64,000 nt of DNA from Escherichia coli (GTDB taxonomy: Bacteria; Pseudomonadota; Gammaproteobacteria; Enterobacterales; Enterobacteriaceae). A program made the position numbers and the translations under genes. Of this stretch, positions 1 through 60,372 are shown piece after piece. The stretch lies in the NCBI RefSeq assembly GCF_050920415.1, contig NZ_CP169309.1, one strand, 5' to 3'. A model generated the notes under the pieces. The model was not told the DNA's origin. It made no database searches and saw only the letters and a program-made list of their open reading frames with translations. Each line of letters begins with the position of its first letter. Position 1 is the first letter of the stretch.

Positions 1-1877
1 GGTGGCAGAGCGTAGCCGGAACAGCCAAGGAATACCCCGGTGCTCGCTGTGCGAATACCCATTTTGCGACCACAGGTCGGGCAGTCGATGCTGGTCAGAA
101 CCATCTGGTTCGGGCGCATACCCCCCTCTTCGGGATCTTTTTCAGCTTTATCTAACTGCTGGGTGAAATCCGAGAAGAAGTGATCCAGTACAGCTTTCCA
201 CTCTGCTTCGTGATTTGCCACCTGGTCGAGGCTGTTTTCCATCTGTGCGGTGAAGTCGTAGTTCATTAACTCACGGAAATTCTCTTCCAGGCGATCGGTG
301 ACGATTTCGCCCATTTTTTCCGCATAGAAACGACGATTTTCTACTCGCACATAGCCACGATCCTGAATGGTCGAAATGATCGACGCGTAGGTAGACGGAC
401 GACCGATACCGCGTTTTTCCAGCTCTTTAACCAGCGATGCTTCACTGAAACGGGCTGGCGGCTTGGTAAAGTGCTGGGCTGGTGTCAGTTCAACGAGCGT
501 CAGAGCATCGCCTTTATCGACTGCCGGTAAGATACGATCTTCATCGCCTTTACGCAGCGCAGGCATCACTTTCGTCCAGCCATCAAAGCGCAAAATACGA
601 CCGCGTGCTTTCAGGCGGAAATCGCCCGCACCAACGGTCAGCGTCGTGGAGTCATATTTCGCTGGGGTCATCTGGCAGGCAACGAACTGACGCCAGATTA
701 ACTGGTACAGTTTCTGCGCATCTGCTTCCATATCCTTCAGCGATTCCGCCATCACATTGACGTCAGAAGGACGAATCGCTTCGTGCGCTTCCTGTGAGTT
801 TTCTTTGCTGGCGTACTGATTCGGACTTTCCGGCAGATATTTCTTACCAAAATTATCGCTGATATAACCGCGAACCATATTTACTGCGTCCTGACTCAGG
901 TTGGTGGAGTCGGTACGCATGTAAGTGATATAGCCTGCTTCATACAAACGCTGCGCCATCATCATGGTTTTTTTCACGCCAAAACCAAGACGGGTGCTGG
1001 CAGCTTGTTGCAGCGTAGAGGTAATAAAAGGAGCGCCAGGTTTACTGGTTGTCGGTTTGTCTTCACGTTCCAGCACGCTGTAGCGCGCTTTTTCCAGCAG
1101 ACTTACCGCAGCCTGAGTTTGTTCTTTGTTGACCGGGCGGAACGGTTTGTCGTTCTGATGAGTCACCTGCAACGCCAACGCATCACCAGATGGCGTGGTC
1201 GTGCTGGCATCGACTTCCCAGAACTCTTCCGGTACGAACGCTTTAATTTCACGCTCACGCTCGACCACCAGGCGGACCGCCACCGACTGCACACGACCTG
1301 CAGACAGACCACGAGCGATCTTTTTCCACAGCAGCGGCGAAACCATATATCCCACCACGCGGTCCATAAAGCGACGCGCCTGCTGGGCATTAACACGATC
1401 AATATTCAGCTCACCTGGTTTGTTAAATGCCTGGCGGATCGCGTTTTTAGTAATTTCGTTAAACACCACTCGGCTATAGCGCGCATCATCACCACCAATC
1501 ACTTCCCGCAGGTGCCATGCAATGGCTTCCCCTTCGCGGTCAAGGTCGGTTGCGAGATAGATGTGGTCTGCTTTTTCAGCCAGTTGTTTCAGTTCAGAGA
1601 CGACCTTCTCTTTACCAGGCAGCACTTCATAGTGCGCCTCCCAATTGTGCCACGGGTCAACCCCCATACGGTTGACGAGAGCGCCACGTTCATCCTTTTT
1701 AGGCTTTTTAGCCGTCTTGGTGGAGGTAGAGTCGGCACTCTTTTTGGCAGCTGAGCCACTGGTCGGCAAATCGCGGATGTGACCGACGCTGGATTTCACC
1801 ACGTAGTCACTACCCAGATACTTGTTGATCGTTTTGGCTTTTGCCGGGGACTCAACGATGACAAGAGCTTTACCCAT
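1..1877 (-). CDS. topA: DNA topoisomerase I, N-terminal ~625 codons; 3' end runs off the window
   Basis: Reverse complement of 1851-1877 reads ATG GGT AAA GCT CTT GTC ATC GTT GAG (MGKALVIVE), the TopA N-terminus; frame stays open to position 1; synteny with yciN and sohB. Confidence 0.88.
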
Positions 1878-2256
1878 ATTCACCTTACCTAATTTGATTC
1901 TTCCAGGAATGCGTCGCACGTTGATAAACCTTCCACTGGCAACGAGTTACCGATATGGACTCGTTCTCTGCGGATATCAACCCCTTGTCGTGACTCTGTT
2001 CACGAAAATTCAGGTGACTGAGTTAACAGGTCTTGGCCTACAGGCGCTATAGCACGACGGAATTTTGGTCGAATGTCAAGCAAATCTATTGCCAGATTGA
2101 CGAAAGCGTCACACTGTACCTGATAAAATCCGATACGCAACTTTATTAGCATGCAAAATCCAAAGTTACCAGTAAGGCGCTCTTGCCACCAGCGTGGTAT
2201 ATTTGTCTGCAAGCCATGCCTGGCGTAGACTAATGTCCTTGTTTAAGGAGTAAATA

Positions 2257-2508
2257 ATGAACAAAGAGACACAACCCATCGACCGCGAAACGCTGTTGAA
2301 AGAGGCCAATAAAATCATTCGTGAGCATGAGGATACGCTCGCAGGGATTGAAGCCACCGGCGTCACGCAGCGTAATGGCGTGCTGGTATTTACCGGCGAC
2401 TACTTTTTAGATGAACAAGGATTGCCAACAGCCAAAAGCACCGCGGTGTTTAATATGTTCAAACACCTGGCCCATGTGCTTTCAGAAAAATATCACCTGG
2501 TTGATTAA
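2257..2508 (+). CDS. yciN: Small conserved protein YciN (83 aa)
   Basis: Track [33 protein letters not shown] recognised as YciN; lies between topA and sohB. Confidence 0.8.
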
Positions 2509-2543
2509 AGCAAAACGCGAGGTCTTACCCTCGCGTTTGTCTT

Positions 2544-3593
2544 TTACATCAATGGCTTTTGCCCCCGCTGCCACCAGCGTAGCAACAATCGATCAGCGCT
2601 CTCTGCCGCGCTGCCGGTGAATCGGTCAATGAGTCGTTTACGCTGCATATAGCGTACATTGACCACTTCACGGCCTTCCATCAGGCTAAGAATAACTTCA
2701 TCACTGGTGTTGATTTCATCAACCAGGCCTTTCTCTACCGCCTGTTGTCCGTACCAGTGTTCACCCGTTGCCACCTGTTCAATATCCAGAGACGGACGCA
2801 TACGCTTCACAAAATCTTTAAATAACTGATGCGTTTCGTTCAGCTCTTCGCGGAATTTCTCCCGCCCTTCTTCGGTGTTTTCACCCAGCAAGGTCAGCGT
2901 GCGCTTATACTGCCCGGCGGTGTGCAGTTCGATATCAATATCTTTGCTTTTCAGGAAGCGGTTAAAGTTGGGCATTTGCGCCACCACCCCAATGGAACCC
3001 ACAATAGCAAACGGTGCGGAAACAATTTTGTCCGCCACACAGGCCATCATGTAACCGCCGCTGGCAGCAACTTTGTCTACCGTAACAGTTAAAGGAATGT
3101 TTTTATCACGCAGACGCTGCAGCTGCGAAGCCGCCAGCCCGTAACCATGCACCATGCCACCAGGGCTTTCCAGACGTAGCACAACCTGATCCTGCGGTTT
3201 AAATGCTGCGAGTACCGCCGTTATCTCTTCACGTAGCGAGTTCACTTCATGGGCGTCCATGCTGCCTTTAAAATCCAGCACCCAGACGCGAGGTTTACTG
3301 TCAGTTGCCACCTCGCCCAGTTTGGCTTTCGCTTTTGCGGCTTTCGCTTCTTGCTTGTGCTTTTTCTTCTGCGCTTTATGCCACTGTTTTTGCTGATGAG
3401 TGTCCATCAGCGCCGCGGCCAGTTCTTCTTTCATCTCCTTATACTGTTCGCTGAGATTGTTGACCCGTAACTCGCCACGCTGGCGTTTATTACGTTGAGC
3501 AACATTGACAATAATGGCGGCAATCGCCGCAATCGCTAGCACAACGGTAACGATTTTCGCCAAAAACAAACCATATTCAGACAACAATTCCAC
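2544..3593 (-). CDS. sohB: Inner-membrane peptidase SohB (S49 family)
   Basis: 349-aa ORF with N-terminal membrane helix and S49 peptidase-like body; conserved position. Confidence 0.88.
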   Translation of the reverse strand: MELLSEYGLFLAKIVTVVLAIAAIAAIIVNVAQRNKRQRGELRVNNLSEQYKEMKEELAAALMDTHQQKQWHKAQKKKHKQEAKAAKAKAKLGEVATDSKPRVWVLDFKGSMDAHEVNSLREEITAVLAAFKPQDQVVLRLESPGGMVHGYGLAASQLQRLRDKNIPLTVTVDKVAASGGYMMACVADKIVSAPFAIVGSIGVVAQMPNFNRFLKSKDIDIELHTAGQYKRTLTLLGENTEEGREKFREELNETHQLFKDFVKRMRPSLDIEQVATGEHWYGQQAVEKGLVDEINTSDEVILSLMEGREVVNVRYMQRKRLIDRFTGSAAESADRLLLRWWQRGQKPLM

Positions 3594-3812
3594 GAGTCCC
3601 CACCTTGGTTAAACAACGCTTTGGCTCACAGTTTACAACAGGCATGTTAAGCCGTCTCGCAGAGATGTTATTGCAGCGAAAGTATGACAAAGTATCCATT
3701 TTGCGGTGTTATCGCCCCAGGCTGATTGAAATGCCCTTCTGTTTCAGGCATAAAGCCCCAAAGTCTTAAAGTACACTGGCAGCGCGACAGACAACGTCGT
3801 TGAGGAGTAGCC

Positions 3813-4571
3813 ATGCATTACCAGCCAAAACAAGATTTACTCAATGATCGCATTATCCTGGTGACGGGAGCCAGCAATGGTATTGGTCGTGAAGCCGCGA
3901 TGACGTATGCACGCTATGGTGCGACAGTGATTCTGTTGGGCCGTAATGAAGAAAAATTACGTCAGGTAGCCAGCCACATAAACGAAGAAACTGGGCGTCA
4001 GCCACAGTGGTTTATTCTCGATTTGCTGACCTGCACGTCCGAAGATTGCCAACAACTGGCACAGCGCATTGCCGTTAATTATCCGCGTCTGGATGGTGTT
4101 TTGCATAATGCCGGATTGCTCGGCGATGTTTGCCCAATGAGCGAGCAAAACCCGCAGGTCTGGCAGGACGTCATGCAGGTCAACGTTAATGCCACCTTTA
4201 TGCTCACCCAGGCACTGCTTCCTTTATTACTCAAATCGGACGCCGGTTCACTGGTCTTTACTTCATCAAGCGTTGGACGTCAGGGGCGTGCAAACTGGGG
4301 CGCTTATGCAGCGTCGAAATTTGCCACCGAAGGGATGATGCAGGTACTGGCCGATGAATATCAGCAGCGCCTGCGCGTCAACTGCATTAACCCAGGTGGT
4401 ACGCGCACCGCAATGCGCGCAAGCGCCTTCCCGACCGAAGATCCACAGAAACTTAAAACACCCGCTGATATCATGCCGCTCTACCTCTGGCTGATGGGCG
4501 ATGACAGCCGCCGTAAAACCGGCATGACCTTTGACGCCCAACCGGGCCGTAAACCAGGAATATCCCAATGA
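3813..4571 (+). CDS. yciK: Short-chain dehydrogenase/reductase YciK
   Basis: 252 aa with Rossmann motif VTGASNGIG; 4-bp overlap with btuR suggests an operon. Confidence 0.88.
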   Translation: MHYQPKQDLLNDRIILVTGASNGIGREAAMTYARYGATVILLGRNEEKLRQVASHINEETGRQPQWFILDLLTCTSEDCQQLAQRIAVNYPRLDGVLHNAGLLGDVCPMSEQNPQVWQDVMQVNVNATFMLTQALLPLLLKSDAGSLVFTSSSVGRQGRANWGAYAASKFATEGMMQVLADEYQQRLRVNCINPGGTRTAMRASAFPTEDPQKLKTPADIMPLYLWLMGDDSRRKTGMTFDAQPGRKPGISQ

Positions 4572-5158
4572 GTGATGAACGCTACCAACAGCGTCAGCAG
4601 CGTGTAAAAGATAAAGTGGATGCCCGTGTGGCCCAGGCCCAGGATGAACGCGGTATTATCATCGTCTTTACCGGCAATGGAAAAGGCAAAACCACCGCGG
4701 CATTTGGTACAGCAGCTCGCGCAGTTGGTCACGGAAAAAAAGTGGGCGTCGTGCAGTTTATTAAAGGCACCTGGCCTAATGGCGAACGAAAACTGCTGGA
4801 GCCACACGGCGTTGAGTTTCAAGTGATGGCAACGGGCTTTACCTGGGATACGCAAAACCGCGAATCTGATACCGCAGCCTGCCGTGAAGTCTGGCAACAT
4901 GCCAAACGAATGCTGGCAGATGCTTCACTGGATATGGTTTTGCTCGATGAGCTGACGTATATGGTGGCGTATGACTATTTACCACTGGATGAAGTGGTGC
5001 AGGCGTTAAATGAACGTCCACATCAACAGACGGTGATTATCACGGGTCGTGGTTGTCATCGGGATATTCTTGAACTGGCGGATACGGTAAGTGAATTACG
5101 CCCTGTCAAACATGCGTTTGATGCCGGTGTTAAGGCGCAAATCGGGATTGATTATTAA
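4568..5158 (+). CDS. btuR: Cob(I)alamin adenosyltransferase
   Basis: 196 aa with P-loop GNGKGKTTAAFG; ATGA overlap with the yciK stop. Confidence 0.9.
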   Translation: MSDERYQQRQQRVKDKVDARVAQAQDERGIIIVFTGNGKGKTTAAFGTAARAVGHGKKVGVVQFIKGTWPNGERKLLEPHGVEFQVMATGFTWDTQNRESDTAACREVWQHAKRMLADASLDMVLLDELTYMVAYDYLPLDEVVQALNERPHQQTVIITGRGCHRDILELADTVSELRPVKHAFDAGVKAQIGIDY

Positions 5159-5162
5159 GGGA

Positions 5163-5195
5163 AAGCACCTCAAAAGATCGCCTCTTGAGGTGCTT
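5163..5195. terminator. Hairpin shared by convergent btuR and the 102-aa ORF
   Basis: Perfect 11-bp inverted repeat aagcacctcaa / ttgaggtgctt with 11-nt loop; U-rich flank readable on both strands. Confidence 0.5.
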
Positions 5196-5210
5196 TAATC
5201 ATAATTATAT

Positions 5211-5519
5211 TCAAGCGGCAATAGCAAAACTCAGAATCCGTTTAATCTCATTCAAATGTCCCGGATATGCTTCATGATTCTCAGCGTCAACATCTTCAAT
5301 AAATAATATCAGTTCAGTAATTAACGCATTGGCATCTTCATAACTGATTCCGCTTAACTCTGGCGAAGTTTCAGTACCGTAGTTAATCGTCAGATTGTTC
5401 ATCACCGTGAGGATAAGGATAAAATATTTATGACAAACCTTGCAAGTGGTTTTGTTGCCCAGAGTATTATACAGCATATCAAGTAATGCCAGTATTCTAC
5501 GGTTTTGTACATCGTTCAT
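5211..5519 (-). CDS. Hypothetical 102-aa protein, no signal peptide; second gene of an AT-rich two-gene operon
   Basis: Strong AGGAGG Shine-Dalgarno about 8 nt upstream of ATG; starts 13 nt after the upstream ORF stop; AT-rich codons; no family recognised. Confidence 0.55.
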   Translation of the reverse strand: MNDVQNRRILALLDMLYNTLGNKTTCKVCHKYFILILTVMNNLTINYGTETSPELSGISYEDANALITELILFIEDVDAENHEAYPGHLNEIKRILSFAIAA

Positions 5520-5531
5520 AAAAAGCCCCTC

Positions 5532-6533
5532 CTATAACATTATTCCGCTGGCAATAAGTAATTTCGCCAGCCCCTCAGACGCCTTTAACCCACTAATGAC
5601 CTGTGCGCGTAATATTTCATTTAATCTGTTTTGTTCAGCTGCCGTGCGTGTTTTATTAGTGTATAAACCTTTTAGATAATCACCCTTATCTATAAAGGCA
5701 TTTAAAGCTTCAATCGCGGGCATTGCAGCAGCCGATGCCTGTAGTCTGGTTTCATTCACATTGATTACTGAACTTAGAAACTCCTTCCTGTTTTTCAGAG
5801 TGTTAAACTCTGTATTCTTAGAGTTTTTAGATACCGCATTATAATAAAGCATATTATTATGTACATTCGCAAAGGTATAATTTTCAATCTTATCGCCTTT
5901 TGTATAAATATCATTACGCAAAACAGTCATGTTTTTTATAAGTCTTACCCAATTTTTATCCGCCGTTTTACCTATTTTCCCAGCATTGACCTTTATTATA
6001 TATAACTCGTTGAAATAACTTACTAAATCTTTAACTGCCGCTGCCGATTCAGCTAAATCTTTGCTATGTGAAACATCAAGTAGTGTTTGCGCGTTGTTTG
6101 CGTGATCCAGAGCCTGTTTAAGTAATGTCACTTGCTGACTTTCTGTAGTTTTTATGTCTTCAGTCAAGAGCTCTACATAAGCACTCATGCTATTAATGAC
6201 TTCCATTGAAGCCAGTAGTTTCTCTTTTTCGAATGGGACTAATTGTACTTTATCTGTTTTTTCTTCAGGGGGCCTGCATAATTTTCCACCCTGACCATCG
6301 TTCGCAACATCAATGGTATAATCAGGTCGCAATGCACAATCCGGATTAGTCGCATAAAAATTAACAAGGAAGTTTTCACGAGAAGCATAGTATTGTTTAA
6401 AGAAACTTGCATTCGCCGCAACCGCCTTGTTACCCGCAGTAATAACAGTTTCAGCTTGCTCATTTTTCAATGCTTCAGTTGCACAACCTGAAAGCATTAA
6501 CAGCGATAGAAATAATCCACTATATCTAATCAT
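5532..6533 (-). CDS. Hypothetical lipoprotein (333 aa)
   Basis: N-terminus MIRYSGLFLSLLMLSGC is a signal peptide with lipobox L-S-G-C; +2 residue Ala predicts outer-membrane sorting; GAGGTG Shine-Dalgarno upstream; AT-rich; Asn/Lys-rich, probably helical; no family recognised. Confidence 0.6.
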   Translation of the reverse strand: MIRYSGLFLSLLMLSGCATEALKNEQAETVITAGNKAVAANASFFKQYYASRENFLVNFYATNPDCALRPDYTIDVANDGQGGKLCRPPEEKTDKVQLVPFEKEKLLASMEVINSMSAYVELLTEDIKTTESQQVTLLKQALDHANNAQTLLDVSHSKDLAESAAAVKDLVSYFNELYIIKVNAGKIGKTADKNWVRLIKNMTVLRNDIYTKGDKIENYTFANVHNNMLYYNAVSKNSKNTEFNTLKNRKEFLSSVINVNETRLQASAAAMPAIEALNAFIDKGDYLKGLYTNKTRTAAEQNRLNEILRAQVISGLKASEGLAKLLIASGIML

Positions 6534-6660
6534 AACCCACCTCTTGACGTTGAGTTTATCTCAGATAATTAAATAGTAATGTGGCTATTCCCTGGCATTA
6601 TTCATAAGCAAGTATGAAATTAAATTAAAATACTGCGACTATTTATCATGCTTCAAATGA

Positions 6661-6687
6661 AGAAAAGGCCCCGCAGGGCCTTTATTT
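6661..6687. terminator. Bidirectional hairpin terminator downstream of rluB
   Basis: ggccc-cgca-gggcc stem-loop flanked by A-run upstream and T-run downstream. Confidence 0.6.
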
Positions 6688-6702
6688 AATACTTAACTTA
6701 AA

Positions 6703-7578
6703 TTAACCGTTATTATTACGTCCACCAGAACGACGACCGCCGCTGACCTGGCTGTGACGTTTCACCGCACGACGAATTTGATTCGCCTTCATACGACGAC
6801 GGTCTTTTTCTACAGCAACTTTAGAGCTGGTTTCTGGCGGTAGTTCCACCAGCTCACGCAGATAGTTAGTCTGGGCAAGATCCAGCTCAGTCCAGCCACC
6901 GCGTGGCAGACCTTTCGGCAGTGGGATATCACCGTAACGCACGCGGATCAGACGGCTCACCTGCACACCAACAGCTTCCCAAAGACGACGAACTTCACGG
7001 TTACGGCCTTCGGTCAGAGTAACATTGTACCACTGGTTGATCCCTTCGCCGCCGCTGAACTTAATGGTTTTAAAGGCTGCCGGACCATCTTCCAGCTGCA
7101 CGCCACGACTCAAATCACGCAGTTTCGCGTCGTCAACCTGACCAAATACACGCACGGCATATTCACGTTCAACTTCACGGCTTGGATGCATTAGACGGTT
7201 TGCCAGTTCACCGTCGGTGGTAAACAGCAGGAGACCGCAGGTGTTAACGTCCAGACGACCTACGGCAATCCAGCGTGCACCGCGCAGTTTTGGCAGACGG
7301 TCAAATACCGTTGGACGCCCTTCCGGATCGTTACGGGTACACAACTCACCTTCCGGTTTGTAATAGGCCAGAACGCGACAAATTTGTTCAGCGGACTCAC
7401 GTACCGAAATCAGGTGACCATCGATACGGATTTTCAATCCAGGGGTAATTTCAACACGATCGCCGAGTTTAGCAATTTTGCCATCAACACTCACACGACC
7501 GGCTTCAATAATAGATTCGATTTCACGGCGAGAACCGTGGCCGGCACGCGCCAGCACTTTCTGTAGCTTTTCGCTCAT
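6703..7578 (-). CDS. rluB: 23S rRNA pseudouridine synthase B
   Basis: 291 aa, S4-like N-terminal domain plus RsuA-family body; C-terminal Arg/Gly-rich tail. Confidence 0.9.
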
Positions 7579-7678
7579 AGAGCTTCCTTTTGGTGTCGCC
7601 TTCCCAGGCGTCGAACAGGAGAATCAATGGCGCAGTAGAGCGCCATTTTAAGGCCGCGTAGTATACAGAGTTAATCAC

Positions 7679-8299
7679 TTATAAAAAAGGCTTCACATCA
7701 CCTACACCTTCACGCAATACGACTGGCGTATCATCGGTGAGATCAATAACCGTTGTCGGTTTCTGCCCGAGATAGCCGCCGTGAATAATCAAATCCACCT
7801 GTTTTTCCAGACGGTCTTTAATTTCTTCCGGGTCAGACTCGGTAAATTCGCTGCCAGGTAGCATCAGTGATGTGGAAAGCATCGGTTCGCCCAATGCTTC
7901 AAGCAACGCCTGCGCAATCGGGTTAGAAGGCACACGCATACCGATGGTTTTGCGTTTTTCCTGCAACAGACGGCGTGGCACTTCCTTCGTCCCCTTCAGG
8001 ATGAAAGTGTAGTTACCCGGCGTATTGTTTTTCATCAAACGAAACGCAACGTTATCGACAAATGAATAGGTCGAGAGTTCAGAAAGATCGCGACACATCA
8101 GGGTAAAGTTGTGACCGTCCGGCAGCTGGCGAATACGACAAATACGCTCCATGGCGTTTTTATCTTCAATTTTACAGCCGAGCGCATAGCCGGAATCAGT
8201 TGGATAAACAATCACCCCGCCTTTACGCACGATCTCCACCGCCTGGTTGATCAGACGTTGCTGCGGGTTATCAGGATGAATATAAAAAAACTGGCTCAT
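7679..8299 (-). CDS. yciO: Sua5/YrdC-family protein YciO (206 aa from MSQFFYIHPDNP)
   Basis: Start at the internal ATG gives the known 206-aa length; ATGA overlap with the trpH stop. Confidence 0.85.
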   Translation of the reverse strand: MSQFFYIHPDNPQQRLINQAVEIVRKGGVIVYPTDSGYALGCKIEDKNAMERICRIRQLPDGHNFTLMCRDLSELSTYSFVDNVAFRLMKNNTPGNYTFILKGTKEVPRRLLQEKRKTIGMRVPSNPIAQALLEALGEPMLSTSLMLPGSEFTESDPEEIKDRLEKQVDLIIHGGYLGQKPTTVIDLTDDTPVVLREGVGDVKPFL

Positions 8300-9177
8300 A
8301 ATTCCCTCTCTGTGGTGTTCTGCGGCTGTTCCCATAGCTGCCAGACGCCTTCAACGCCTGCGGGCAGCCAGAGTTTACGACCCAGTTCGATCCACGGGCA
8401 TGGCTGATGAAAATCAGATCCTTGTGATGCCCATAAATGGTGCTGGCGGGCAAGCGTCGCCAGTTGGGTGCGTTCATTGGGCGATTGCTGGCACTGCGCG
8501 ACTTCCATCGCGTCGCCGTGGTGTTCGGCAAAATGCGCAACCAATCTTTTCAGCCATTTAGCACTAAGATTGTACCGCCCAGGATGAGCAAGCACTGCCT
8601 TACCGCCAGAATGATGAATGACATCAATAGCTTGTTCTATTGTACACCACTGTGGCGGAACGTATCCGGTTTTCCCGCGTGCCAGATATTTTTTAAAGAC
8701 ATCCGCTATTGAACTGGCTTTGCCACATTCAACCAAGAAACGCGCAAAATGACCGCGCGTCACCGCACCGCCCTGCGCCAGTCGTTGCGCGCCTTCCAGC
8801 GCCCCAGGTATTTGCGCTTTTTCAAGTCTTTCGGCAATTAACTTCGCCCGCTGATTGCGCCGTTCTGTCTGCTGCGCGAGGAACTCACTCATTGCCGAAT
8901 GTGCAATATCAATATTCAGCCCGACAATATGAATTTCATGATTTTCCCAGACGGTGGATATTTCCACGCCAGGAATAAGATTCAGTGCCAGTCCTGAACG
9001 TGAAATTTCTTCTCTTGCTGGCGCGATTGCCGCTGTGGTGTCATGGTCGGTGATCGCCAGGGTGCCGACGCGCATCTCGACTGCACGGTGCACCAATGCT
9101 TCTGGCGTCAGGCAGCCATCGGAAGCTGTGGTATGGCTGTGCAGGTCATAAATCACTGCGTAATTCGTGTCGCTCAA
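8296..9177 (-). CDS. trpH: PHP-domain phosphoesterase TrpH/YciV (293 aa if started at TTG)
   Basis: HSHTTASDG PHP motif; track ORF runs to 9258 but a TTG at codon 28 gives the known 293-aa length. Confidence 0.8.
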   Translation of the reverse strand: MSDTNYAVIYDLHSHTTASDGCLTPEALVHRAVEMRVGTLAITDHDTTAAIAPAREEISRSGLALNLIPGVEISTVWENHEIHIVGLNIDIAHSAMSEFLAQQTERRNQRAKLIAERLEKAQIPGALEGAQRLAQGGAVTRGHFARFLVECGKASSIADVFKKYLARGKTGYVPPQWCTIEQAIDVIHHSGGKAVLAHPGRYNLSAKWLKRLVAHFAEHHGDAMEVAQCQQSPNERTQLATLARQHHLWASQGSDFHQPCPWIELGRKLWLPAGVEGVWQLWEQPQNTTEREL

Positions 9178-9449: not shown

Positions 9450-11012
9450 ATGCAAACACAAAAACCGACTCTCGAACTGTTAACCTGCGAAGGTGCTTAT
9501 CGCGATAATCCGACCGCGCTTTTTCATCAGTTGTGTGGGGATCGTCCGGCAACGCTGCTGCTTGAATCCGCAGATATCGACAGCAAAGATGATTTAAAAA
9601 GCCTGCTGCTGGTGGACAGTGCGCTGCGCATTACAGCATTAGGTGACACTGTCACTATTCAGGCACTTTCCGGCAATGGCGAAGCTCTGCTGGCATTACT
9701 GGATAACGCCCTGCCTGCGGGTGTGGAAAATGAACAATCACCAAACTGCCGCGTGCTGCGCTTCCCTCCTGTCAGTCCATTGCTGGATGAAGACGCCCGC
9801 TTATGCTCTCTTTCGGTTTTTGACGCTTTTCGCTTATTGCAGAATCTGTTGAATGTACCGAAGGAAGAACGAGAAGCAATGTTCTTCGGCGGCCTGTTCT
9901 CTTATGACCTTGTGGCGGGGTTTGAAGATTTACCGCAATTGTCAGCGGAAAATAACTGCCCTGATTTCTGTTTTTATCTCGCTGAAACGCTGATGGTTAT
10001 CGATCATCAGAAAAAAAGTACCCGTATTCAGGCCAGTCTTTTTGCTCCCAATGAAGAAGAAAAACAACGTCTCACTGCTCGCCTGAACGAACTTCGCCAG
10101 CAACTGACCGAAACCGCGCCGCCGCTGCCGGTAGTTTCCGTGCCGCATATGCATTGTGAATGTAATCAGAGCGATGAAGAGTTCGGTGGCGTAGTGCGTT
10201 CGTTGCAAAAAGCGATTCGCGCCGGAGAAATTTTCCAGGTCGTACCATCTCGCCGTTTCTCACTGCCCTGCCCGTCATCGCTGGCGGCCTATTACGTGCT
10301 GAAAAAGAGTAATCCCAGCCCGTACATGTTTTTTATGCAGGATAATGATTTCACCCTGTTCGGCGCGTCGCCGGAAAGTTCGCTCAAGTATGACGCCTCC
10401 AGCCGCCAGATTGAGATCTACCCGATTGCCGGAACACGCCCACGAGGACGTCGCGCCGATGGTTCACTGGACAGAGACCTGGACAGCCGCATTGAACTGG
10501 AGATGCGTACCGACCATAAAGAGCTTTCTGAACATCTGATGCTGGTGGATCTCGCCCGTAATGACCTTGCGCGCATTTGCACTCCTGGCAGCCGCTACGT
10601 TGCCGACCTGACCAAAGTTGACCGTTACTCTTACGTGATGCATCTCGTCTCCCGCGTTGTCGGTGAGCTGCGCCACGATCTTGACGCCCTGCACGCTTAC
10701 CGCGCCTGTATGAATATGGGCACGTTAAGCGGTGCCCCGAAAGTGCGCGCCATGCAGTTAATTGCCGAAGCGGAAGGTCGTCGACGCGGCAGCTACGGCG
10801 GTGCGGTAGGTTATTTCACCGCACATGGCGATCTCGACACCTGCATTGTCATCCGTTCGGCGCTGGTGGAAAACGGTATCGCCACCGTGCAAGCCGGTGC
10901 TGGCGTAGTCCTTGATTCTGTTCCGCAGTCGGAAGCCGACGAAACCCGTAATAAAGCCCGCGCTGTACTGCGCGCTATCGCCACCGCGCATCATGCACAG
11001 GAGACTTTCTGA
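9450..11012 (+). CDS. trpE: Anthranilate synthase component I
   Basis: 520 aa; follows trpL and attenuator. Confidence 0.95.
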
Positions 11013-12607
11013 TGGCTGACATTCTGCTGCTCGATAATATCGACTCTTTTACTTATAACCTGGCAGATCAGTTGCGCAGCAATGGGCATAACGTGGTGAT
11101 TTACCGCAACCATATTCCGGCGCAAACCTTAATTGAACGTCTTGCGACCATGAGCAATCCGGTGCTGATGCTTTCTCCTGGCCCCGGAGTGCCGAGTGAA
11201 GCGGGTTGTATGCCGGAACTCCTCACCCGTTTGCGTGGCAAGCTGCCAATTATTGGCATTTGCCTCGGACATCAGGCGATTGTCGAAGCTTACGGGGGCT
11301 ATGTCGGTCAGGCGGGAGAAATTCTTCACGGTAAAGCGTCGAGCATTGAACATGACGGTCAGGCGATGTTTGCCGGATTAACAAACCCATTGCCGGTAGC
11401 GCGTTATCACTCGTTGGTTGGCAGTAACATTCCGGCAGGTTTAACCATCAATGCCCATTTTAACGGCATGGTGATGGCGGTGCGTCATGATGCGGATCGC
11501 GTTTGTGGATTCCAGTTCCATCCGGAATCCATTCTCACCACCCAGGGCGCTCGCCTGCTGGAACAAACGCTGGCCTGGGCGCAACAGAAGCTGGAGCCGA
11601 CCAACACACTGCAACCAATTCTGGAAAAACTGTATCAGGCGCAGACGCTTAGCCAACAAGAAAGCCACCAGCTGTTTTCAGCGGTGGTGCGTGGCGAGCT
11701 GAAACCGGAACAACTGGCGGCTGCATTGGTCAGCATGAAAATTCGCGGCGAGCACCCGAACGAAATCGCCGGGGCAGCAACTGCCCTTCTGGAAAATGCT
11801 GCGCCGTTCCCACGCCCTGATTATCTGTTTGCCGATATCGTCGGCACCGGCGGTGACGGCAGCAACAGTATCAATATTTCTACCGCCAGTGCGTTTGTCG
11901 CCGCGGCCTGTGGGCTGAAAGTGGCGAAACACGGTAACCGCAGCGTCTCCAGTAAATCCGGCTCGTCGGATCTGCTGGCGGCATTCGGTATTAATCTTGA
12001 TATGAACGCCGATAAATCGCGCCAGGCGCTGGATGAGTTAGGCGTCTGTTTCCTCTTTGCGCCGAAATATCACACCGGATTTCGCCATGCGATGCCGGTT
12101 CGCCAGCAACTGAAAACCCGCACCCTGTTCAATGTGCTGGGGCCATTGATTAACCCGGCGCATCCTCCGCTGGCGTTAATTGGTGTTTATAGTCCGGAAC
12201 TGGTGCTGCCGATTGCCGAAACCTTGCGCGTGCTGGGGTATCAACGCGCGGCGGTGGTGCACAGCGGCGGGATGGATGAAGTTTCATTACACGCGCCGAC
12301 AATCGTTGCCGAACTGCATGACGGCGAAATTAAGAGCTATCAGTTGACCGCTGAAGATTTTGGCCTGACTCCCTACCATCAGGAGCAACTGGCAGGCGGA
12401 ACACCGGAAGAAAACCGTGACATTTTAACACGCTTGTTACAAGGTAAAGGCGACGCCGCCCATGAAGCAGCTGTCGCGGCGAATGTCGCCATGTTAATGC
12501 GCCTGCATGGCCAGGAAGATCTGCAAACCAATGCGCAAACCGTTCTTGAGGTACTGCGCAGTGGTTCCGCTTACGACAGAGTCACCGCACTGGCGGCACG
12601 AGGGTAA
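11012..12607 (+). CDS. trpD: Bifunctional anthranilate synthase component II / anthranilate phosphoribosyltransferase
   Basis: 531 aa; TGATG overlap with trpE stop. Confidence 0.95.
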
Positions 12608-18383: not shown

Positions 18384-18737
18384 ATCCGCTCCGTCGTTAT
18401 GGTTATAAAAACGTGACGAATATACCCACATTGGAGTAACAAATGATCCTACACAGATCACATTATATATGATAATTCACCCTTTATTGATCTGGATTAA
18501 TTTAGAAGTTGCACTGTGAATCCTGGTTAATGTGATTTAAATCAATTCCTATATATTTCACTACGCAAACATTAACTCGCTCGCCACTTGCTGCGGTTTG
18601 CCCATAGCTTAGACCCGCAATTACCTCCGCTTTACAAAGATATGCTTTTCCATACAAGACCTGATGCTGCCACCCGAGGCTTAACCAGGGTACAATTGCC
18701 CGCTAATTAACACCTGCATAAAACTCAAGGAGAGTGC

Positions 18738-42585: not shown

Positions 42586-42670
<85 letters not shown>

Positions 42671-42704
42671 TCTCAAGCATTACATCAAAATTTGAATTAT
42701 CCCT

Positions 42705-42789
<85 letters not shown>

Positions 42790-43501
42790 TCACTTTCAAA
42801 AGTTCCTGAAATCCCCAACAAATCCACAATTAAATATTCTGCCCATGCGGGGAAGGATGAGAAGCTTCGACTAAGGTTCGACTCGAGCGCCAGCGAGAGA
42901 GCGTTGCCGCAGGCAACGACCCGTAGGGCGAAGCGCGCAGCGCTGAGTAATCCTTCCCCCACCACCATCACTTTCAAAAACCCCTGTATTCTCCAACGAA
43001 TCCGTAACTGAATATTCTGCCCATGCGGGGAAGGATGAGAAGCTTCGACTAAGGTTCGACTCGAGCGCCAGCGAGAGAGCGTTGCCGCAGGCAACGACCC
43101 GTAGGGCGAAGCGCGCAGCGCTGAGTAATCCTTCCCCCACCACCATCACTTTCAAAAACCCCTGTATTCTCCAACGAATCCGTAACTGAATATTCTGCCC
43201 ATGCGGGGAAGGATGAGAAGCTTCGACTAAGGTTCGACTCGAGCGCCAGCGAGAGAGCGTTGCCGCAGGCAACGACCCGTAGGGCGAAGCGCGCAGCGCT
43301 GAGTAATCCTTCCCCCACCACCATCACTTTCAAAAACCCCTGTATTCTCCAACGAATCCGTAACTGAATATTCTGCCCATGCGGGGAAGGATGAGAAGCT
43401 TTGACTAAGGTTCGACTCGAGCGCCAGCGAGAGAGCATTGCCGCAGGCAACGACCCGTAGGGCGAAGCGCGCAGCGCTGAGTAATCCTTCCCCCACCACC
43501 A
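42790..43501 (+). repeat. Four tandem 178-bp direct repeats (rtT region), each ending in the last ~19 nt of tRNA-Tyr
   Basis: Unit boundaries 42790-42967, 42968-43145, 43146-43323, 43324-43501; copies 2-4 near-identical, copy 1 diverged at its 5' end; each ends ccttcccccaccacca. Confidence 0.9.
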
Positions 43502-59729: not shown

Positions 59730-59837
59730 ATGACGCTCGCGCAGTTTGCCATGATTTTCTGGCACGACCTAGCGGCACCGATCCTGGCGGGGATTATTAC
59801 CGCAGTGATTGTCAGCTGGTGGCGTAACCGGAAGTAA
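59730..59837 (+). CDS. ldrA: Type I toxin Ldr, 35 aa (MTLAQFAMIFWHDLAAPILAGIITAVIVSWWRNRK)
   Basis: 35-codon ORF read directly; matches the LdrA sequence; below the ORF-track size cutoff. Confidence 0.85.
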   Translation: MTLAQFAMIFWHDLAAPILAGIITAVIVSWWRNRK

Positions 59838-60264: not shown

Positions 60265-60372
60265 ATGACGCTCGCGCAGTTTGCCATGACTTTCTGGCAC
60301 GACCTGGCAGCACCGATCCTGGCGGGAATTATTACCGCAGCGATTGTCAGCTGGTGGCGTAACCGGAAGTAA
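60265..60372 (+). CDS. ldrB: Type I toxin Ldr, second copy, 35 aa (MTLAQFAMTFWHDLAAPILAGIITAAIVSWWRNRK)
   Basis: Same architecture 535 bp downstream; two amino-acid differences from copy 1; paralogue assignment tentative. Confidence 0.8.
   Translation: MTLAQFAMTFWHDLAAPILAGIITAAIVSWWRNRK

Follow-up and report, generated by a model that had tools for sequence, protein, structure and literature searches.

The short yciO-rluB spacer of an Escherichia coli genome is probably an empty integration site that yciQ occupies in K-12

The short spacer that separates yciO from rluB in this Escherichia coli genome is probably the empty state of an integration site, and the yciQ cassette of K-12 is probably an old occupant of that site. 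In this joint explanation, to which we assign a probability of roughly 75%, the short spacer (Form A) is what the site looks like without an insertion, and the allele found here came in on a recombinant patch. The presence or absence of yciQ is in itself ordinary accessory-genome variation. We use "the window" for the whole 64-kb stretch of DNA that was analyzed.

All of the features at this locus lie on the minus strand. The rluB gene (6703-7578), annotated in RefSeq, encodes a 23S rRNA pseudouridine(2605) synthase of 291 aa that matches the NCBIfam equivalog NF007976 over its full length (E 4e-190). The yciO gene (7679-8299) encodes a TsaC/Sua5-family paralogue of 206 aa according to RefSeq (TIGR00057, E 2e-79). 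Exactly 100 bp lie between them (7579-7678), contain no open reading frame and correspond to the unoccupied state of the K-12 yciQ slot. The motif AGGAAG (7584-7589), which is invariant in both of our spacer alignments, ends 5 nt from the rluB ATG (7579-7583), and this position suggests that it is the Shine-Dalgarno sequence of rluB. Next to it is a 5-bp leader hairpin, GACGCCTGGGAAGGCGAC (7595-7612), with the stem CGCCU/AGGCG and the loop GGGA. Apart from a G/T difference in the loop, this hairpin is invariant in 35 Form A sequences and in 27 sequences with the alternative upstream region, Form B. Its first 16 nt, GACGCCTGKGAAGGCG (7597-7612), are the proposed attB core.

Two further elements lie closer to yciO. 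A GC-rich hairpin, AAUGGCGC-N6-GCGCCAUU (7626-7647), which has an 8-bp stem by folding, is probably the yciO terminator and/or an element of the rluB leader. A scan called no canonical intrinsic terminator here, and the tail GAUUCUCC has no U-run; the orthologous hairpins of Enterobacter and Lelliottia come with a T4-T5 run, which in Enterobacter is a T5 run 3' of the hairpin. The TATACT box (7660-7665), invariant in 35 of 35 Form A spacers, is a candidate -10 element of an rluB promoter. The promoter consensus scan preferred TTAACT-18-TAAAAT, a hexamer pair that varies between genera. The 121-nt spacer region folds modestly better than its shuffles (z = -2.0), and the Rfam 15 covariance models gave no match to positions 7400-7900 up to E = 1.

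The annotation of K-12 MG1655 gives the order yciO, yciQ, rluB, with yciQ a gene of 1,896 bp that encodes a DUF2207 protein of 631 aa. A sequence-only reading of the window had placed yciO and rluB about 100 bp apart here, put a gene of roughly 1.9 kb between them in K-12 and proposed that this gene is absent here. The distance and the annotation agree with it on the first two points, and the searches agree on the third: neither YciQ (tblastn) nor the whole K-12 cassette (blastn) has a match anywhere in the 64-kb window. Comparison of YciQ with Pfam, NCBIfam, PADLOC and PHROGs gave nothing beyond DUF2207.

The alignment with the MG1655 interval trpH(rnm)-yciO-yciQ-rluB-btuR(cobO) confirmed that yciO and rluB are not adjacent in K-12 and located the difference to the nucleotide. 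The flanking genes have the same order and orientation in both genomes. Identity to K-12 is 95.6% across 6696-7612 and 96.3% from 7679 onward, and the core hairpin, the Shine-Dalgarno sequence and the 5' end of rluB are identical or 99% identical. The last homologous position is 7612, which is exactly the 5' edge of the hairpin GACGCCTGGGAAGGCGAC. From there the window has 66 nt (7613-7678) where K-12 has 2,099 bp (L001:6918-9016), made up of the 27-bp yciO-yciQ spacer, yciQ itself and 176 bp of the 210-bp yciQ-rluB spacer. The local alignment of the 66 nt with the K-12 yciQ-rluB spacer scored 12, a value that was reached by 473 of 500 shuffles (14.0 +/- 2.3). The same comparison with the Form B spacer of strain EC93 also gave no significant similarity. 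The sequence that precedes the core in Form B spacers, which starts with the box TAAAGnTAGTGTAGTATG and continues with a hairpin and a T-run, is thus not found upstream of the core in the window.

The remaining gene order of the window is that of a standard E. coli (trp operon, ompW, tonB, opp, adhE, hns, nar, prfA), and a few smaller features were noted along it. Between ompW and yciC, a 90-bp N-terminally truncated pseudogene of the YkgJ cysteine-cluster family (18621-18710) is also annotated in strain BA92. Positions 42586-43501 hold two tRNA-Tyr genes and, after them, four RtT sRNA units in tandem (from the annotation of the identical RefSeq record), and the RtT copy number may differ from that of K-12. 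Two Ldr-family type I toxin genes (59730-59837 and 60265-60372) lie between chaA and kdsA. K-12 presumably has three at this place (ldrA, ldrB and ldrC), so that the array of the window may be one unit shorter.

We scanned for YciO in one genome per species, which gave 80 loci across the Enterobacteriaceae. The distance from yciO to rluB is 100-112 bp in 34 of them, a range that includes the 100 bp of the window, and 214-5,156 bp in another 34. In the remaining 12, rluB lay beyond the fetched flank or the contig ended. The short-gap loci come from E. albertii, many Citrobacter and Enterobacter, Silvania, Lelliottia, Franconibacter, Buttiauxella and Dryocola. The window spacer aligns collinearly and over its full length with 34 others from at least eight other genera, with a mean column identity of 76% over the 35 sequences. 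Relative to the window, the short spacers of E. albertii, Citrobacter, Enterobacter, Buttiauxella and the other genera show ordinary sequence divergence only.

The window contains every element of Form A in the common order: the TATACT box, the GC-rich hairpin, the core GACGCCTGKGAAGGCGACAC, the Shine-Dalgarno sequence and the ATG. The 3' block is invariant and reads TCGACGCCTG-K-GAAGGCGACA ... AGGAAGCTC-N-ATG. The sequence of the GC-rich hairpin is specific to each genus, and its position and a stem of 8-11 bp are kept in every genus when each sequence is folded separately. RNAalifold missed this variable hairpin on the Form A alignment, in which MAFFT sets the genus-specific stems out of register. 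In Salmonella enterica subsp. arizonae, where the slot contains an IS fragment, about 2.4 kb with a decayed IS integrase-core (rve) ORF apparently interrupts the short spacer (L077:6618-9093), and the sequence just before the core is still TTCGACGCC, of the Form A type.

Within E. coli we counted both arrangements in 5,426 complete RefSeq genomes, a clinically biased set in which the number of matches is limited by the sensitivity of megablast. The contiguous short form (rluB, spacer, yciO) occurs in 1,441 of these genomes (27%) and the K-12 yciQ cassette in 3,977 (73%). The two forms are thus a common and nearly complementary two-state polymorphism. This frequency fits the listing of yciQ among the 198 extended-core candidates of the E. 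coli pangenome (PMC12595684). The list itself describes neither the structure of the locus nor a mechanism, and it classes yciQ as a regulator; by Pfam, the product is a DUF2207 membrane protein.

A second variable slot lies on the other side of rluB, between rluB and cobO. Here the window carries a two-gene module that is absent from K-12 (5159-6695, minus strand), AT-rich with 37% GC. From their translations, the two genes encode a 333-aa lipoprotein with the lipobox LSGC (MIRYSGLFLSLLMLSGC...; 5532-6533) and a 102-aa protein (5211-5519). Neither protein has a match in Pfam, NCBIfam, PADLOC or PHROGs; homologues with 61% and 73% amino acid identity are found in the same slot of E. albertii. 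The genes cobO and rluB converge on the module, which has its own terminator hairpins at both ends; the K-12 counterpart is a single 39-bp terminator spacer. In some form it is present in 1,237 of the 5,426 genomes. Its E. coli alleles diverge (92% and about 81% nucleotide identity), and in many genomes only about 25% of the module query, beside rluB, matches closely.

The two slots vary independently in E. coli, and all four combinations were found. Module and yciQ occur together in E166, MINF_1A, Z226-7, AZ161, IAI39, SMS-3-5 and CE10, K-12 has yciQ without the module, and O103:H2 CEC12044 and 17-07187 have neither. The module without yciQ, as in the window, was found in only eight other genomes (9 of 5,426 in all). 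The sequence-only reading had suggested that rluB sits in a hotspot at which accessory modules are swapped between strains. This idea holds for the independence of the slots and for the variety of contents between yciO and rluB, where we found more than 15 unrelated cargoes across the Enterobacteriaceae, but within E. coli the yciO-rluB slot is essentially two-state. Outside Escherichia, the cobO-rluB slot is far less variable than the yciO-rluB slot. The variation between yciO and rluB appears to arise in two steps, site-specific integration at the 16-nt core of the rluB leader and then homologous recombination through the flanking sequence.

The sequences beside the junction indicate how the alleles may have moved. 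K-12 and O103:H2 are 100% identical in rnm, but identity falls to 93-97% in the ~300 bp to either side of the junction, which is the pattern expected if old alleles have been exchanged with short flanks by homologous recombination. Empty and occupied alleles would accordingly pass between lineages through recombination in yciO and rluB. The window resembles K-12 in the core and over the first 300 nt of rluB (97-100% identity in all, 97-99% for the rluB part). Compared with other empty-site E. coli of the O103:H2 type, the first 150 nt of rluB are 92% identical and the next 150 nt 96%. The last ~190 nt of yciO (~7679-7870) form a haplotype that no other sampled E. coli has. The K-12-like start of rluB, the odd 3' end of yciO and the rarity of the arrangement suggest, on the basis of roughly twelve sampled haplotypes, that ~260 bp (~7613-7870) are a short recombinant patch. 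On this patch the empty allele would have come from a divergent Escherichia donor into a genome with the lipoprotein module and would have displaced its yciQ cassette. Of the candidates compared, neither E. albertii (88-90% identity) nor the two cryptic-clade representatives (~94%) is the donor.

The patch is also what speaks against a simpler history, one of vertical descent from the Escherichia ancestor, in which the spacer was empty throughout and no recombinant segment is involved. Such a history accounts for the empty form in E. albertii and in about 27% of E. coli, and the window spacer is indeed 93-95% identical to those of the empty-site strains 17-07187 and O103:H2, the latter of which belongs to phylogroup B1. 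Against it stand the K-12-like start of rluB next to an empty site, the unusual end of yciO and the nine-genome arrangement, in which a module that otherwise accompanies yciQ is found without it. We therefore regard uninterrupted vertical inheritance as unlikely. Two further observations concern the divergence of the region. The segment from rluB to yciO is at least 99% identical to the window in only 4 of the 5,426 genomes. The genes trpE and trpD (9450-11578) are ~95% identical to K-12, with 300 bp (10378-10677) at 90%, against 98-99% for yciN and sohB; the trp-rluB neighborhood of this genome as a whole is unusually divergent for E. coli.

The case for the short spacer as an integration target comes from occupied sites. 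The cargoes between yciO and rluB include DUF2207/yciQ (in Escherichia and, with 55% amino acid identity at the same place, in Klebsiella spallanzanii), an HNH nuclease, a DUF4136 lipoprotein, LysR with GNAT, an AraC regulator, PAAR toxins and DUF4225. Others are Hcp, an alpha/beta-hydrolase, LysE, a tartrate-dehydratase-like operon, GGDEF/EAL proteins and a choline-sulfatase cluster. When the Form B of Cedecea was searched against E. coli, only six chromosomes matched (6 of 5,426), a low occupancy by intact elements. In two strains, EC93 and A17, the layout from the yciO stop codon is a complete O103:H2-type Form A, the 16-mer, an island, Form B, the 16-mer again and rluB. The island of EC93 is 8.3 kb long (core copies at L091:863 and 9201; tyrosine integrase at 7457-8980) and that of A17 is 9.1 kb long (core copies at L093:3083 and 12201). 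In BA92, a 13-kb element lies between a yciQ cassette of the K-12 type and rluB (core copies at L092:592 and 13722). The tyrosine recombinases of these three strains, 504-571 aa long, adjoin the rluB-proximal end, and one lies within the island of Leclercia (L051). The integrases are 59% identical to each other and match Pfam PF00589 (Phage_integrase) and the integrase family phrog_1.

The window has a single copy of the core; an occupied site has two, which flank the insertion as a direct repeat. When the flanks of the EC93 island are joined across one core, the result is exactly the empty spacer of 17-07187, from the TATACT region through the rluB ATG. The same organization is found in other genera. 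Direct repeats of the 16-mer GACGCCTGTGAAGGCG flank PAAR-toxin islands in Cedecea, Enterobacter and Silvania, with one mismatch in the left copy of Silvania, and the left copy of Buttiauxella is eroded. The insertions of all four genera have a complete or decaying Form A on the left and Form B on the right, and share the conserved left end CACAAGnAAAATA...AATCAAT. Based on these comparisons, we propose that the 16-nt core in the rluB leader acts as attB for tyrosine-integrase islands, and that positions 7597-7612 of the window would be the unoccupied attB core of this family of elements.

Some of the island contents deserve mention. The A17 island encodes a RelA/SpoT-domain protein (L093:9328-10425) with a match to PDC-S33, a candidate defence system of PADLOC (E 4e-81), and the EC93 island a large DUF4238 protein (L091:2728-5109) with weak E2-like matches. 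This cargo suggests that the rluB-leader site can carry anti-phage genes. The only Form B match on a "plasmid", from K. pneumoniae, was considered as an unintegrated element and rejected, as the replicon carries rluB, cobO and topA and thus holds an integrated copy amid chromosomal genes, not an attP. This replicon, pZ0117KP0003-2 (L094, NZ_CP098171.1, 233 kb), has the chromosomal core genes rluB, cobO, yciK, sohB and topA and, upstream of rluB, a DUF4238 island in which an integrase-like gene is truncated. The record most likely represents part of a chromosome, or its replicon was misassigned.

Form B precedes rluB at nearly all of the loci with a larger gap. It consists of the box TAAAnTTnGTGTAGTATGTGCGnCC, about 100 nt, a hairpin with a T-run, the motif AAGTATACCA and the invariant core. 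It is non-coding and about 165 nt long (L049:11180-11400, L076:11553-11779 and L091:9001-9220). RNAalifold recovered its hairpin from 27 sequences, with compensatory changes in six of seven pairs. In comparisons among Raoultella, Silvania, Cedecea, Enterobacter and Buttiauxella, identity is 88-95% for Form B and only 79-85% for yciO. We propose that an integrating element would supply Form B, as its integrase-proximal arm, as the new upstream region of rluB. Form B could be an attP arm or integrase promoter, an attenuator of rluB, or both. Three other ideas on these leaders were discarded: local alignment against shuffles did not support homology of the TATACT box of Form A with the TAGTAT box of Form B; the ATG-AAA-TAG of Form B, inspected as a possible leader peptide, varies in ORF length and sequence between genera; and the resemblance of the leader to 23S rRNA around U2605 amounts to a shared pentamer.

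The yciQ-rluB spacer of K-12 resembles this arm. It shares a 25-nt box with the arm of EC93 (24 of 25 identical); the local score of 38 was reached by none of 500 shuffles (16.6 +/- 2.2). An equivalently placed covarying hairpin and the junction motif are also common to both, and outside these three elements the K-12 spacer is only 72-77% identical to the island arm. Against Rfam, it gave only chance-level snoRNA matches. An integrase is absent from K-12, and so is a left core copy between yciO and yciQ. We suggest, from the shared elements, that yciQ and its 176-bp Form B-like spacer may be a decayed occupant that has lost its integrase and left end. This K-12-type occupant would now segregate in E. 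coli as one allele, the one carried by 73% of genomes.

One may ask instead whether yciQ with Form B is the ancestral enterobacterial state, the short spacer a derived allele that spread repeatedly, and the islands mere recombinants into the leader. Enlarged gaps are as frequent as short ones in our scan (34 of 80 loci), the 27 aligned Form B sequences come from many genera at 88-95% identity, and the yciQ homologue of Klebsiella spallanzanii occupies the same place. But EC93, A17, Cedecea, Enterobacter and Silvania have Form B opposite a complete Form A that ends in the core. The position of Form B at the right, integrase-proximal end of the insertion implies that it travels with the insertion. 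Its stronger conservation between genera than that of the yciO coding sequence fits horizontal spread, whereas Form A tracks the phylogeny of the genera. Given this contrast, we consider an ancestral Form B improbable.

Deletion of yciQ in place, which would make the 100-bp spacer a deletion scar, is the naive expectation from the presence of the gene in K-12 and in 73% of complete E. coli genomes. However, the spacers of E. albertii, Citrobacter, Enterobacter and other outgroup genera are orthologous to the 66 nt of the window, which have no significant similarity to the K-12 yciQ-rluB spacer. This marks the window spacer as an old intact allele and not a scar. A genuine in-place deletion looks different: Escherichia sp. 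E1V33 keeps both the 5' and the 3' fragment of yciQ, and the Form B spacer. Precise excision would also need the left core copy that K-12 does not have. Loss of yciQ in place is thus very improbable. Finally, we give practically no weight to an error of assembly or of species assignment, because 1,441 complete genomes are contiguous across the short form, the other genes of the window are in normal E. coli order, and positions 5159-8400 are 100% identical, over the stretches compared, to E. coli MFDS1022581 (NZ_CP169399.1), which establishes the arrangement as that of a real E. coli and neither of another species nor of a faulty assembly.

The occupied rluB sites resemble integrative islands that lie beside housekeeping loci, such as those at the E. 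coli defence-island hotspots of Hochhauser et al. 2023 (PMC10121019). The shared traits are target repeats at the termini, an integrase at one end, variable cargo and low occupancy by intact elements. The rluB site differs in its target, which is a hairpin in the 5' leader of a protein-coding gene and no tRNA, tmRNA or sRNA gene, and in that the end of the element replaces the region upstream of the target gene. Neither rluB, yciQ, yciO nor b1267-b1269 appears in the main text or four supplementary files of that 41-hotspot catalogue of defence islands, and nothing in the open-access literature that we searched describes integration at the rluB leader. A bolder version of our proposal is that the invariant leader hairpin is the attachment site of an uncatalogued family of tyrosine-integrase islands that replaces the promoter and leader of rluB with a ~165-nt arm. 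We put this forward tentatively, at somewhat under even odds.

The first consequence concerns what is native at this locus. With the empty state identified, it is K-12 that carries an extra cassette, and the strain of the window is not missing a native gene. This strain lives without a dispensable DUF2207 inner-membrane protein and would have a different promoter and leader in front of rluB, presumably the native short leader and not one derived from an element. In Streptococcus mutans, a DUF2207 protein reportedly affects stress tolerance. In a table of MazF cleavage sites (PMC5001579), the K-12 rluB mRNA includes 49 nt or more ahead of the AUG, which implies that transcription enters through the leader region, and the question arises whether occupancy by an island alters rluB expression. 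In strain engineering, yciQ serves as a neutral integration locus and is disrupted without comment (PMC11943725); our findings provide context for this routine use of a "neutral" site. More broadly, a defined 16-nt target in the rluB leader would account for the diverse contents of the slot across the Enterobacteriaceae, from the T6SS protein Hcp and PAAR toxins to candidate defence genes, regulators and metabolic operons. If the bolder version is true, rluB in K-12 and in ~73% of E. coli would be expressed from fossil mobile-element DNA, and yciQ would be leftover island cargo.
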